Origin: Candidatus Thorarchaeota archaeon
GTDB lineage: Archaea > Asgardarchaeota > Thorarchaeia > Thorarchaeales > Thorarchaeaceae
Direction of reading: 5' to 3'
NCBI GenBank assembly: GCA_048884785.1
Contig: JBHLQM010000077.1
Location: 1 to 12,658, forward strand
DNA: 12,658 nucleotides
Shown: in pieces, positions 143-7,758 of the stretch
Layout: each line of letters opens with the position of its first letter
How positions within the stretch are numbered: position 1 is the stretch's first letter
Program-made: the position numbers and the translations under genes
The notes under the pieces: generated by a model
Databases searched by the model: none
What the model was told of the DNA's origin: nothing
What the model saw: only the letters and a program-made list of their open reading frames with translations

Positions 143-1867
143 TTATGGGTTGTCCATTTTGCGCTCTGCAATAATTCCCTGAAAGGGTCGAAGATGAATA
201 CCATTGTCGAGAATTGGGCTGCAGTGATGCAGGGTTGAGTAGAGTAGATGCCTTTCCCCTTTGATATCGCCGATGGAGATTTCTTTTTTGGAGAGATTCA
301 ACCATACCTCCACTACTTGTTTGCTGCCATTACCATTGAACCTACGTTCGTACGAAAGAATCTGTCCTCGAAACTTGGCTAGGTTCTTAATGCTCATGGA
401 ACCAGAATGAAGAGCTGGTGTGTTGCTTCTAAGGTACAGGAGGTCTTTGTAGCAATTGAGCAAGGATTCTGTTTTCTTTTCCTCGACTTCCACATTGATC
501 TCTTTATGATTGGGACCAATGGGCATCCATGGTTCAACCTCAGGCTTGCTGAATCCTGCATTTGATGAAGAGTTCCATTGCATAGGAGTACGACAATCAT
601 CTCGATTCAGGGAAACGCCTGTAATTTTCTGAACCAGATTAATAAAGAACTGGGGGAGTTTGCTGAATTTCAAGGCTACAGGATCCTGTGCATTCCTGAG
701 TGGAATTCTATGATTCAACATGCCAATCTCCTCACCCATATAGATGAATGGCACACCTCTTGCGGTAAGCTGTAAGATTGCATTCAGCTTTGCCTTGTTT
801 ATATCTGCTCCAAGTACGCTAATTCTGCGAGTCCGGTCATGATTGGAAAACACCCAGGTGGGAGTATAAGGTTCTGAGAAGAATTCCTCATATGCTAGCA
901 TTAGCTTTCTTAGCTTGATAGCTTCCAGTTTCACACCAAGTGACTGAAACTGGAAGACCATGTGAAGCCCGTCAGTCTTGCTATCTGCAGCTTCTCCACA
1001 ATACTGTTTGAGCACCTCGAGTGATGCACCAACCTCACCAACCAAGAACCGCTCAGGGTCCGAATACTCATCCATCACGCTGCGAAGCTCCTTCACAAAG
1101 ACAAAGTTGTCAGGGTGATTGATTGTATGTATATTATCATGAAAGAACCCCTTGGAGTCCTCTTCTGATGGCATATACTTCATTGCAAATGGATTGTCTT
1201 GGAGGTGCTCATCCTCGTAAATGGTATTGATGATATCGAGACGAAATCCATCAACTCCCTTATCCAACCAAAACCGCATGGTATCAAACATCTCCTGTTT
1301 TACCTCTGGATTGCGGTGATTGAGATCGGGTTGGAAGGGAAGGAACTGAGCCCAATACCATTGCTCAGTCAAATCATCGTAGTGCCAGCCTGAACCCCCG
1401 ATCATTGAATTCCAATTAGTTGGGGGTTTCTTCCCGCCGGGTTTCTTTCCATCCCGCCAGATATACCAGTCGCGCTTCGGATTGTCGCGGCTTGACCGGG
1501 ATTCCATAAACCATGGGTGCTGTTCGCTAGTATGATTAAGAACCATATCAAAGACTACATACATGTTTCGACTGTGAATCTCGGCTATGAGACGTTCGCA
1601 GTCATTCAGAGTTCCATACTCTGGGGCAATACTACGATAATCACTAACATCATACCCGTGGTCCTTCTGAGGACTCGCAAAGAAGGGCGAAAACCAAATA
1701 GTTTCGATACCCAAATCCTTCAGGTAGTCTAGCTTTGAGATTATACCAGGAATATCTCCTATCCCATTTCCTGTACTGTCTTTGAAACTTCTCGGATATA
1801 TTTGATATACAACTGTCCGCTTCCACCATGGAAGTGTCTTGGGATCATGGGGTGACATATCCAACAT
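143..1867 (-). CDS. GH13 alpha-glucosidase / oligo-1,6-glucosidase family protein
   Basis: 574 aa with WWKRTVVYQIYPRSFKDS-GIGD N-terminus, DMVLNHTS, QPDLN (oligo-1,6-glucosidase group signature), GFRLDIIN (nucleophile), LVGEV (acid/base), FSNHD and RDDCRTPMQW. Start could also be the ATG at 1858. Confidence 0.95.
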   Translation of the reverse strand: MLDMSPHDPKTLPWWKRTVVYQIYPRSFKDSTGNGIGDIPGIISKLDYLKDLGIETIWFSPFFASPQKDHGYDVSDYRSIAPEYGTLNDCERLIAEIHSRNMYVVFDMVLNHTSEQHPWFMESRSSRDNPKRDWYIWRDGKKPGGKKPPTNWNSMIGGSGWHYDDLTEQWYWAQFLPFQPDLNHRNPEVKQEMFDTMRFWLDKGVDGFRLDIINTIYEDEHLQDNPFAMKYMPSEEDSKGFFHDNIHTINHPDNFVFVKELRSVMDEYSDPERFLVGEVGASLEVLKQYCGEAADSKTDGLHMVFQFQSLGVKLEAIKLRKLMLAYEEFFSEPYTPTWVFSNHDRTRRISVLGADINKAKLNAILQLTARGVPFIYMGEEIGMLNHRIPLRNAQDPVALKFSKLPQFFINLVQKITGVSLNRDDCRTPMQWNSSSNAGFSKPEVEPWMPIGPNHKEINVEVEEKKTESLLNCYKDLLYLRSNTPALHSGSMSIKNLAKFRGQILSYERRFNGNGSKQVVEVWLNLSKKEISIGDIKGERHLLYSTLHHCSPILDNGIHLRPFQGIIAERKMDNP

Positions 1868-1964
1868 CTCTCAATCGGTAAAGATTAACATCACCCTTTT
1901 GTCATTTCTTACTAATGGGAAAGGTCATAACAGTAAATAGGAAAGTAGACTACAGTGAACTGTG

Positions 1965-2201
1965 ATGAGCCTCCTCGGCCCTGATGATTTTGACCTTAGC
2001 AAAAAAGAACGAAAGAAAAAGCTGGCCAGAGACCTCTCGCCAGAAGTATACAAACAGATTGAGAAATGGCTCGACCGAGAAGATGACCCTGAGGCGATTC
2101 GAAAGCTGACCGAATTAGTTGGCCCTGAAGAGGCAAAGCTCCTCATGGCCAAAAGGAAAAAGAAGCCCGAAAATAGAGATTCTCTCCTCGAAGACATGTA
2201 G
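1965..2201 (+). CDS. Small highly charged hypothetical protein
   Basis: ORF 1962(GTG)/1965(ATG)-2201, K/E/R/D-rich and helical-looking. It fills the gap divergent from the GH13 gene and lies directly upstream of the next gene. No family recognised. Confidence 0.7.
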   Translation: MSLLGPDDFDLSKKERKKKLARDLSPEVYKQIEKWLDREDDPEAIRKLTELVGPEEAKLLMAKRKKKPENRDSLLEDM

Positions 2202-2213
2202 GTGATTAGTGAT

Positions 2214-2588
2214 ATGACCGAGGATGAGATAGTTAATCTTGCCAAGGTTGCAAAGGAAAAAGGCGATTTGACAACAACGCTTGCTGTTATTAGAACAATA
2301 GAAGCAGAGAAGAGGACGCACTTGGCTGAGCTTCGAACAGGAATCGGGATTCTCACTATTCCACTTTCATTGCTTACAATTCTGATTGCAACTTCTCAGT
2401 ATTATCTGATTGAAGAGGTCTTGATTTTCATTGTCAGTTTAGCTATAGGAATAGTCTGTCTTGCCATTGTAGGCACATATCTGGTCATTGACGCTCTTCG
2501 AGATTTAAGGAAGAATGCCAATCTAAGACGCCTTGCATGTGTAGATACTGAGAGCCTATTGAGAACCAACCGGATGCTGATTGAGTGA
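2214..2588 (+). CDS. DUF202 (YidH-like) small membrane protein
   Basis: EAEKRTHLAELRTGIGILTIPLSLL resembles the DUF202 ANERTxLAWxRT motif and is followed by two hydrophobic helices. AGGTGA (2200-2205) sits 8 nt before ATG 2214, which favours that start over GTG 2202. Confidence 0.7.
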   Translation: MTEDEIVNLAKVAKEKGDLTTTLAVIRTIEAEKRTHLAELRTGIGILTIPLSLLTILIATSQYYLIEEVLIFIVSLAIGIVCLAIVGTYLVIDALRDLRKNANLRRLACVDTESLLRTNRMLIE

Positions 2589-2751
2589 AATAAGAAAAAG
2601 AGCAATGTATGCTGCAATCGAGGAGAGAAGAAAATCGAGCTTTGGATTAGAACTATCGACATCACTCGGTCGATTGACTTCTTTGCGTACTCGGTAAATC
2701 CCTAAAGTCGAAGAGTATACACTGTTTCATCTAATTCATGGAGTGAAGCAA

Positions 2752-3060
2752 ATGGAAACCAATTTGAAAGTAACAGTAGTGAAGAGATTTGGCTCTGAAG
2801 ACATTCTTGGACATGTGGTGCATTGGAATGGTAAACCAATTCTTCCGTGTAATCATCAAGTCGGAGAAGAATATATTGTTGATCACCATCTGAACAAACC
2901 CGAGGGATTGTGTGGTCGGGCTTGGCAAGACATGTATACTACTCTAATGGTCTATTACTTTGGAGGCGACTACGACTATCCGGAACCCGGAGTCACATAC
3001 CAACCCTGTGGTGACGGATTAAGACCAGTTATCTTCAAGATTGAGAAGTTAGAAAAATAG
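2752..3060 (+). CDS. TIGR04076-family small cysteine-containing protein
   Basis: Pattern LKVTVVK...PC-H-VGEEYIV...PEGLCGRAWQDMY...FGG...CGDGLRPVIFKIEKL is typical of TIGR04076. GGAGTGA RBS at 2740-2746 precedes ATG 2752 (ORF track starts at GTG 2743). Confidence 0.85.
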   Translation: METNLKVTVVKRFGSEDILGHVVHWNGKPILPCNHQVGEEYIVDHHLNKPEGLCGRAWQDMYTTLMVYYFGGDYDYPEPGVTYQPCGDGLRPVIFKIEKLEK

Positions 3061-3134
3061 GTGGAAACGGACTGGATACGTGAAATCTTACAGGATATTT
3101 ACCACAGTTTGTCCAAGGAGAGATTCAGAGAGAG

Positions 3135-3800: not shown

Positions 3801-3809
3801 AAAAAGAAG
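3801..3809 (-). terminator. Oligo-T terminator after tRNA-Thr
   Basis: Minus strand CTTCTTTTT immediately follows the encoded CCA. Confidence 0.5.
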
Positions 3810-3919
3810 TGGAGCCCCTGGCGAGATTTGAATTCGCGCCGGATGCCACAGATGTGCACACGGTCTCGCGGCCTCCTCCTTACCAAGGAGGCGATCTAAC
3901 CGGTCTAAGCTACAGGGGC
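3810..3919 (-). tRNA. tRNA-Thr(GGT) with non-canonical intron at 53/54; CCA encoded
   Basis: Minus strand: GCCCCTG TA GCTT AGACCGGTTA GATC G CCTCC TTGGTAA GGAGG AGGCC GCGAG [32 nt] TTCAAAT CTCGC CAGGGGC T CCA. Acceptor, anticodon and T stems pair perfectly after removing 3864-3833. Anticodon GGT at 3884-3882, U73 discriminator, mature length 78 nt. Confidence 0.95.
3833..3864 (-). other. 32-nt tRNA intron between G53 and U54 (T arm), relaxed BHB motif
   Basis: Intron ACCGTGTGCACATCTGTGGCATCCGGCGCGAA. Central helix CGCG(3870-3867)/CGCG(3838-3835), bulges AG^A and AA^T, inner helix CCG/CGG extended by an imperfect hairpin. The outer helix is not formed. Confidence 0.9.
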
Positions 3920-3950: not shown

Positions 3951-3963
3951 GATAAAGGTTTCG
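3951..3963 (-). promoter_or_regulatory. BRE/TATA promoter of tRNA-Thr
   Basis: Minus strand CGAAACCTTTATC, ending 32 nt upstream of the tRNA 5' end. Confidence 0.6.
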
Positions 3964-4258: not shown

Positions 4259-4816
4259 ATGGACTGGAGATATTCACTCATCGCAATTACAATCTTAATT
4301 CTAGTTTCTTCAAGCAGTAATGTTACTACTAGTGACACATTGCATTTCACCCAAGATGATATGGGACCAGATTTTCGTGGTGTTGGAAATCGATATACAG
4401 ATTATCCGCCAAACATTGAAACTGCAAATGATCAACTCTTACTCTATATTGATGTTTTAGACAATGATGGTATTGATACTGTTATTGGTAGCTACAAACT
4501 CACCAACGAAACGAATTGGAACAATATCACACTCAGTCTAAATCATACTTATAGCAATGGCTGGCAGGCATATCTGGGATATGGTCCTGATTTCTCACTA
4601 ACACAAGACAGTAGAGTATTGGTTTGGGATGTGAGATACTATGCTAATGATACGCTAGGCAACTGGAATGCTTCAGAGATAGGAAGGCACTCTTACGCCT
4701 TATTGAATTTTCAACACTCGCTGGATGTAACCTTGATAATTGGAGCCATTGTAGGAATCGGTATGCTTGCATTGGTTGTAGTTGTATTTATCCAAAAGAA
4801 ACGGATGACAACATAG
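4259..4816 (+). CDS. Secreted, C-terminally anchored surface (glyco)protein of unknown function
   Basis: N-terminal signal-like hydrophobic segment, beta-rich N/T/D-rich domain (YYANDTLGNWN), six N-x-S/T sequons, C-terminal TM helix followed by KKR. Confidence 0.85.
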   Translation: MDWRYSLIAITILILVSSSSNVTTSDTLHFTQDDMGPDFRGVGNRYTDYPPNIETANDQLLLYIDVLDNDGIDTVIGSYKLTNETNWNNITLSLNHTYSNGWQAYLGYGPDFSLTQDSRVLVWDVRYYANDTLGNWNASEIGRHSYALLNFQHSLDVTLIIGAIVGIGMLALVVVVFIQKKRMTT

Positions 4817-6804: not shown

Positions 6805-7758
6805 ATGACAATTAGTGTGAATGAGAAGGCACTCGAGATTGTTGAAGAGATGATGAACAATGCTGATAGACTAGACTGCACCGTGAGCAAACAGGATAAT
6901 GGAACCACCATTATTGATGCAGGAGTAGAGGTCGCTGGCACAAATGAACTTGGTAGACTACTTGGTGAAGTGTGCCTGGGTGGCTATGGTGTGGTCAAGC
7001 TCTCAGAGACGACTATTGGAGATATGACCCTCCCGTGTGTGATTGTTTCTACTGATGAACCGGCAATCGCCACGATGGGCTCGCAATATGCGGGATGGGT
7101 AATTAACGTCGACAAGTATTTTGCCATGGGTTCAGGACCTGCTCGCGCGCTGTATGCAAAAGAGAAGCTGTATGGAGAGCTGGAGTACAAGGATGATGCA
7201 AAAGTGGGCGTCATCCTTCTAGAGACCAGAGAATTCCCTCCAGAGAATGTCACAGAGCATATTGCAAAGAAGTGTGGCATTGCCACTTCTGACCTCTATG
7301 TAATTGTTGCACCTACTGCGTGTCTTGCCGGGTCCATTCAAATATCAGCCAGAGTAGTGGAGGTTGGGGCTCATAAGCTGCATGAGCTGAAGTTCGATCC
7401 TCGGAAGATAGTCAGGGGACATGGCACTGCTCCTATTGCTCCGGTCGTCAAGAAAGACACCAAGGCCATGGGGATTACAAATGACTGCATACTGTATGGT
7501 GGAAGTACCTACTATGACATTCGTCCAGCTGACGGTGATGACCTAAAGACTCTCACAGAGAAAGCTCCCTCATCCACGTCTGAGCAGTATGGAATGCCAT
7601 TCTATGACCTGTTCAAAGGCTTTGAGTTTGACTTCTACAAGGTAGACCCACTGTTGTTCAGTCCTGCTCAAGTCACGATCAAGAATATTGACACTGGAGA
7701 GGTCTACAAGGCCGGGAAGCTGAATGCAGAGGTTCTGAAACAGTCACTCGGACTGTGA
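6805..7758 (+). CDS. mch: Methenyltetrahydromethanopterin cyclohydrolase
   Basis: ISVNE start, IIDAGV, EVCLGG, MGSQYAGW, MGSGPARAL, APTACLAGSIQISARVVE, TNDCILYGG, DFYKVDPLLFSPA. 11 nt after the fwdC stop with AGGGGT RBS. Confidence 0.97.
   Translation: MTISVNEKALEIVEEMMNNADRLDCTVSKQDNGTTIIDAGVEVAGTNELGRLLGEVCLGGYGVVKLSETTIGDMTLPCVIVSTDEPAIATMGSQYAGWVINVDKYFAMGSGPARALYAKEKLYGELEYKDDAKVGVILLETREFPPENVTEHIAKKCGIATSDLYVIVAPTACLAGSIQISARVVEVGAHKLHELKFDPRKIVRGHGTAPIAPVVKKDTKAMGITNDCILYGGSTYYDIRPADGDDLKTLTEKAPSSTSEQYGMPFYDLFKGFEFDFYKVDPLLFSPAQVTIKNIDTGEVYKAGKLNAEVLKQSLGL

Follow-up and report, generated by a model that had tools for sequence, protein, structure and literature searches.

A 32-nt intron between positions 53 and 54 interrupts the tRNA-Thr(GGU) gene of a Thorarchaeota genome

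The locus described here is a threonine tRNA gene of Thorarchaeota with a 32-nt intron in its T arm. The window, the whole stretch of DNA that was analysed, is a complete contig of 12,658 bp (C77) from an assembly of 3.61 Mb in 158 contigs, which is 91% complete with 5.4% contamination. Very probably this is the only tRNA-Thr(GGU) gene of the genome, its intron at position 53/54 has an HBh' splice motif that is cut by EndA, and the exons are joined by RtcB. The gene and its parts are as follows, in window coordinates.

3810..3919, minus strand: the whole tRNA-Thr(GGU) gene, a 107-nt precursor body plus an encoded CCA (RF00005; ARAGORN after in-silico splicing)
3865..3919, minus strand: 5' exon, tRNA positions 1-53, with the acceptor, D arm, anticodon arm, variable loop and T-stem 5' strand GCGAG
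3882..3884, minus strand: anticodon GGT, for the threonine codons ACC and ACU (ARAGORN cloverleaf)
3833..3864, minus strand: intron of 32 nt between positions 53 and 54, the removal of which restores the T arm
3810..3832, minus strand: 3' exon, with the T loop TTCAAAT, T-stem 3' strand CTCGC, acceptor 3' strand, discriminator U and encoded CCA
3952..3956, minus strand: putative archaeal TATA-like element TTTAT about 35 nt upstream of the mature 5' end, proposed from reading the sequence
3801..3805, minus strand: putative oligo-T terminator, a T5 run directly after the CCA, likewise proposed from reading the sequence

The Rfam tRNA model RF00005 matches the unspliced gene at 3919..3813 with 44.3 bits, against a gathering score of 29. 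ARAGORN, run on the intact sequence in default and intron modes, reports no tRNA at the locus. After deletion of the 32 nt at 3864..3833, ARAGORN calls a 78-nt tRNA-Thr(GGT) with a perfect T arm (GCGAG-TTCAAAT-CTCGC), a U discriminator and an encoded CCA. The spliced gene has a 7-bp acceptor stem, D, anticodon and T arms and the anticodon GGU, and all 17 of the 17 acceptor, anticodon and T-stem pairs are intact. Sprinzl numbering puts the insertion between G53 and U54, and a junction shifted by 1 nt in either direction would alter position 53 or 54, as read from the sequence. The initial annotation, made from the sequence alone, had placed a tRNA-Thr(GGT) with a 32-nt intron at 53/54 in exactly this interval and had noted the perfect T arm left by the excision; ARAGORN on the spliced sequence bears out both. 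The D stem (GCTT/GATC, 3896-3910, minus strand) contains a C11.U24 mismatch. This mismatch is kept in 69 of 75 Thorarchaeia tRNA-Thr(GGU) genes (GCTY/GATC), and because it is conserved in orthologues we regard it as a trait of the lineage and not as damage.

The contig also encodes ftr, mch, an alpha-amylase-family gene, an MFS transporter and an aminotransferase. The MCH protein is 81% identical to proteins from Thorarchaeota MAGs, and the next 25 or so matches are all from Thorarchaeota. In many Thorarchaeota loci a tRNA-Thr(GGU) gene occupies the same place, 3-4 kb from mch and on the opposite strand. The MCH matches and the syntenic tRNA gene indicate that the gene is native to the lineage and is not contamination, and the suggestion that the host might be Asgard-like can be narrowed to Thorarchaeota. 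The exons are 87-98% identical to syntenic orthologues in other Thorarchaeota. Two open reading frames of the window have no Pfam match: one of 143 aa at 1925-2356 (minus strand) and one of 185 aa at 4259-4816 (plus strand), the latter between the tRNA gene and ftr.

We searched the precursor sequence against 87 genomes of the class from 17 genera, aligned the loci to the spliced reference and refined each insertion by cloverleaf and BHB scoring. Recognisable tRNA-Thr(GGU) genes number 75, in 74 genomes, and 27 of the 75 are uninterrupted. An intron of 30-32 nt at 53/54 is present in 23 of the 74 genomes and in 6 of the 17 genera searched; a survey of relatives had been proposed for the locus. 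The 53/54 intron stands alone in 20 of these 23 genomes, is accompanied by an intron at 37/38 in two and by a D-arm intron in one. The remaining Thr(GGU) genes have introns at 37/38, 39/40, 46/47, 58/59, 59/60 or in the D arm, in several combinations. Within the genus of the window, the 53/54 intron occurs in this genome (G000, 32 nt) and in G019 (30 nt and clearly different in sequence) and is absent from G015, G016 and G020. Its presence requires at least five changes on a gene tree of MCH from 19 Thorarchaeota loci. The presence of an intron at a given site is therefore patchy, even within a genus. One genome (G052) has two Thr(GGU) genes, one with D-arm and 53/54 introns and the other with an intron at 58/59 (loci L109 and L119). 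Locus L016 (SOKL01000334.1) holds, on its minus strand near 7127, the 5' portion of a Thr(GGU) gene, which ends near position 31 and is followed by unrelated sequence; a 3' half was not found within the 20-kb locus, and the fragment may be a truncated gene, a split gene or a gene with a very long intron.

A search of the 91% complete assembly with ARAGORN, Rfam and BLAST, as the initial annotation had advised, found no second Thr(GGU) gene, and a regular-expression search for anticodon hairpins gave, besides the gene on this contig, nothing but random hairpins. The other threonine tRNA genes of the genome are those for CGU (C14, uninterrupted) and UGU (C56, with an intron at 37/38). The codons ACC and ACT together make up 91 of the 2682 codons in seven open reading frames of the window. 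The locus could in principle be a tRNA-Thr pseudogene broken by a random insertion, with another copy doing the decoding, and both the lack of an ARAGORN call and the incompleteness of the assembly speak for this. We consider it very improbable: beyond the missing second copy and the intact 17 pairs, 23 genomes have an insert at this site, with compensatory changes, and in the two genomes of the class assembled as single contigs (G058 and G010) the interrupted gene is the only match. The junctions of the intron fold into a splice motif with the following parts.

3867..3870, minus strand: 5' strand of the central helix H, exon C48-G51 (CGCG), with 4/4 pairs to 3835-3838
3864..3866, minus strand: 5' bulge A52-G53^A, with the predicted 5' splice site after the second bulge nucleotide
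3856..3863, minus strand: 5' strand of the inner helix h', CCGUGUGC, which pairs with 3839-3846 as 3 bp, a U.C mismatch and 4 bp
3839..3846, minus strand: 3' strand of the inner helix h', GCAUCCGG, which pairs with 3856-3863
3835..3838, minus strand: 3' strand of the central helix H, intron CGCG, which pairs with 3867-3870
3832..3834, minus strand: 3' splice-site trinucleotide A-A^U, with the predicted cut after the second nucleotide and no outer helix closing it

Computed directly, the BHB geometry consists of a helix H of CGCG/CGCG with all four pairs formed, bulges of AG^A on the 5' side and AA^T on the 3' side, and an inner helix of CCG/CGG followed by one U.C mismatch and four more pairs. 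Up to the U.C mismatch, these are the elements that had been read from the letters alone, and the cutting rule applied to them (after the second bulge nucleotide) gives the same 53/54 junctions as the spliced tRNA. The locus thus has a 4-bp central helix, opposite bulges of 3 nt, an inner helix h' and cuts that yield the exact mature tRNA, all of which are expected of a BHB intron. No pairs of an outer helix form in this gene or in any 53/54 intron scored. The intron therefore has the relaxed HBh' form proposed for it and falls outside the strict hBHBh' motif, in which an outer helix h stands at the 3' bulge; with its 3' splice site unenclosed, cleavage there would depend on a broad-specificity enzyme. 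The central helix and the T stem share exon nucleotides, so the precursor has two conformers, a competition that the initial annotation had foreseen. The MFE fold, at -46.2 kcal/mol, forms the T stem, and the BHB conformer, at -44.5 kcal/mol, lies 1.7 kcal/mol above it, with an ensemble probability of about 10% for H. The cost of refolding is small because the BHB conformer is so close to the MFE.

Covariation among relatives supports both the motif and the exact junction. We aligned 33 junction regions, the 23 from Thr(GGU) genes and others from Thr(CGU), Ala(CGC/GGC) and Leu(CAA) genes whose introns share that junction. Pairs of H and h' are formed in 94.5% of the cells of this alignment, and both sides have changed in 9 of the 12 pairs. 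The observed pairing was reached in none of 500 shuffles, and slid controls gave 28-50%. Helix H is 98.3% paired over 29 distinct sequences and shows one CG-to-UA double change; in the inner helix h' all eight of the eight pairs show double changes across relatives. The 5' bulge is RG^A in all aligned 53/54 introns.

The same alignment bears on where the insert lies. A GCGA repeat occurs at both junctions, and because of it introns placed by alignment alone are ambiguous (47, 51 or 53) until refined by BHB and cloverleaf scoring. The repeat makes it superficially possible that the insert lies in the variable region, at about 47/48, and that the GCGAA within the intron is the true 5' strand of the T stem; the cmscan alignment has this arrangement, with a 34-nt insertion before GCGAA and GCGAA paired with CUCGC. 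It is highly unlikely to be correct. It leaves an A53.C61 mismatch in this gene and is only 69% paired, with no covariation, across the 33 sequences, whereas the exon T stem (GCGRG) is 100% paired in the same alignment and shows eleven AU-to-GC double changes at 52:62. Both cuts fall at the second bulge nucleotide of a 4-bp helix only when the junction is at 53/54. The Rfam placement of the insert was rejected on its pairing and lack of covariation, and the comparison of T stems and registers across relatives fixes the junction at 53/54. That the 32 nt persist as an extra arm of the mature RNA, or are removed without EndA, is about equally implausible: an insert between G53 and U54 would prevent contact between the T loop and the D loop, the cut sites have exact BHB geometry, 32 nt are far too few for a self-splicing intron, and the intronless orthologues in the same genus (G015, G016 and G020) mean that the mature sequence does not need the insert.

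EndA-dependent splicing at 53/54 is in keeping with the enzymes that the genome encodes. There are two PF01974 genes, one for EndA alpha on C35 (187 aa) and one for EndA beta on C56 (235 aa), and both products carry PF02778 and PF01974. The best solved relative of EndA alpha is the Aeropyrum pernix alpha subunit (3e-42). The alignment is gapless through the Crenarchaea-specific loop, with IRKPK on VEKPR of the A. pernix protein (APE) and Lys42 on its Lys44. The Tyr, His and Lys triad aligns with that of APE alpha, and the catalytic His corresponds to the residue changed to Ala in 3AJV. EndA beta has Ala at the catalytic His position. In a comparison with two-unit EndAs, the C-terminal catalytic unit corresponds to alpha and the N-terminal structural unit to beta. 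A strong EndA beta match is found in 82 of the 87 genomes of the class, and most of the class genomes have a second, weaker match of about 190 aa, the size of alpha. An RtcB gene is present in the genome.

An (alpha-beta)2 EndA with an L1 (CSL) loop has been reported for Asgard archaea from a set of genomes with one Thorarchaeota MAG among them (Kaneta et al., PMC5829648), and the lysine of that loop (K44) is reported to confer cutting of relaxed motifs outside the anticodon loop (PMC5829648). Two paralogues, the specific loop and the conserved lysine are all found here. At the level of sequence, separate genes for a catalytic alpha with the Lys42 loop and a beta that lacks the His support a predicted heterotetrameric (alpha-beta)2 EndA and the broad specificity that the initial annotation had supposed for the splicing endonuclease. 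On C56 the endA-beta reading frame (1111-1818, plus strand) overlaps the start of another at 1769-3076 (plus strand) for a 435-aa protein with the P-loop GSPGSGKST, and two tRNA-Arg genes lie 1.3-1.6 kb downstream. A tRNA-Sec gene is located on C35 (12547-12637, minus strand), about 9 kb from endA-alpha, and the genome therefore probably uses selenocysteine.

Starting from the observed gene, junctions, motif, covariation and enzyme genes, we infer cutting and ligation and the manner in which they may proceed. The gene would be transcribed as a precursor of about 110 nt in which the 32-nt intron separates nucleotide 53 of the T stem from nucleotide 54 of the T loop. Exon C48-G51 would then leave the T stem and pair with the intron CGCG, giving a 4-bp central helix stacked on the hairpin within the intron. 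The (alpha-beta)2 EndA, with the L1/CSL lysine on alpha, is predicted to cut both bulges, AG^A and AA^U, behind their second nucleotide. RtcB would join the exons, and the T arm GCGAG-UUCAAAU-CUCGC would form after ligation.

The genome contains at least three further 32-nt introns at 53/54 with the same layout, in Leu(CAA), Val(CAC) and Ser(CGA) genes.

C29 (L169:121-178), minus strand: tRNA-Leu(CAA), with a 53/54 intron and a 37/38 intron
C9, T loop near 36087, minus strand: tRNA-Val(CAC), with a 32-nt 53/54 intron
C107, T loop near 205, plus strand: tRNA-Ser(CGA), with a 32-nt 53/54 intron

The central helix of each intron fits the T stem of its host (CGCG/CGCG, CGGG/CCCG and CGUG/CACG among the three). 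Other interrupted genes include Arg-UCU, Tyr and initiator Met, with introns in the D loop, Lys-CUU, with an intron at 29/30, and Val-UAC and a CAU tRNA, with introns in the variable region. The intron of the tRNA-Val(UAC) gene (C56:6392-6498, minus strand; L173) is about 32 nt long and holds a second hairpin that resembles an anticodon arm, with a TTTGCAT loop. In intron mode ARAGORN assigns several of the non-canonical introns wrongly to the anticodon loop, for example the Leu(CAA) gene on C29, which is reported with one intron of 54 nt.

Similar introns are shared between threonine isoacceptors. In two genera (g11 and g12) the 32-nt intron of Thr(GGU) matches that of Thr(CGU) at up to 88% identity, with a core intron identity of 0.88 against a 99th percentile of 0.67 for shuffled sequences, and the exons of the same pair are 77% identical. 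Such shared introns are seen between L127 and L161 (G036) and also in L085, L091 and L163. The 53/54 junction design recurs in Ala, Leu, Val and Ser tRNAs, and two intron lengths (30 and 32 nt) are found at this site within one genus. The shared introns and their patchy presence may point to spread or exchange between genes with identical T arms, as judged from one intron family, a single-gene tree and junction nucleotides that are themselves constrained. A bolder proposal is that 53/54 is a hot spot in Thorarchaeia and that one intron family moves between tRNA genes by transposition or gene conversion. We put this forward only tentatively and think it rather less probable than not; with one family and T arms that are identical, the two mechanisms are equally likely.

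RF00005 scores the interrupted gene about 20 bits below its intronless orthologues, which reach 61.5-65.2 bits in the same genus. The expectation that standard annotation might miss the gene holds for ARAGORN, but not for the Rfam model, which finds it and misplaces the insert. tRNAscan-SE 2.0 in archaeal mode searches for non-canonical introns by default (PMC8450103). Given the ARAGORN miss and the low, misplaced Rfam match, a pipeline with no archaeal BHB step would report the ACC and ACU codons as unreadable by this genome.

Introns at 53/54 have been described before, as has the enzyme responsible for their removal, and both are common in Thorarchaeota; nothing here is new in principle. 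The position is named among the non-canonical tRNA intron sites in a review (PMC4090602). As presented in that review, the HBh' introns of Crenarchaeota and Thermoproteales (Marck and Grosjean, 2003; Sugahara, 2008) share with the present one the 53/54 site, the small size, the 4-bp central helix, the 3-nt bulges cut after the second nucleotide, the lack of an outer helix and the need for an (alpha-beta)2 EndA with a specific loop. The host here is an Asgard archaeon, in contrast, and, so far as one can tell, the intron sequences are not related. On the enzyme side, the Thorarchaeota alpha subunit is like that of the A. pernix (alpha-beta)2 EndA (PDB 3P1Z, 3AJV) in its CSL/L1 loop, which aligns without gaps, and in the loop lysine. 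The beta subunit differs from its A. pernix counterpart in being longer (235 aa), with an acidic N-terminal extension, and is closer to the M. kandleri and M. jannaschii units than to crenarchaeal beta.

Heavily interrupted tRNA genes have been described within the Asgard superphylum, with insertions that include some in the T arm at canonical BHB motifs, and most of the genomes encode a pair of EndA paralogues (bioRxiv 10.64898/2026.10.13.758758). The published Asgard introns and EndAs (PMC5829648; bioRxiv 10.64898/2026.10.13.758758) thus share with this genome non-canonical and multiple introns, T-arm insertions, two EndA paralogues with the L1 loop and repeated intron gains. The preprint (bioRxiv 10.64898/2026.10.13.758758) centres on Jordiarchaeia and Atabeyarchaeia, with Thorarchaeia absent from its main text, and Kaneta et al. 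(PMC5829648) included one Thorarchaeota MAG and did not describe the Thr(GGU) gene. Compared with the published cases the intron burden here is lower, and the Thr(GGU) 53/54 intron is traced across 87 genomes. The locus adds one more well-documented case to the evidence that Asgard archaea tolerate introns outside the anticodon loop and that they carry what, judged here by its sequence, is a crenarchaeal-type endonuclease of broad specificity.

What may be slightly new is the sharing of threonine introns together with their patchy presence. In the intron transposition of Thermoproteales (Fujishima et al., 2010, as cited in PMC4090602), similar introns likewise occur at the same position in different isoacceptors, whereas here there is one intron family, mainly in two threonine isoacceptors with identical T arms. 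Intron families that cross isoacceptors are almost absent from other Asgard classes (bioRxiv 10.64898/2026.10.13.758758). If the 53/54 hot spot were real, it would resemble the spread of introns in Thermoproteales and would be unlike the census of those other Asgard classes.
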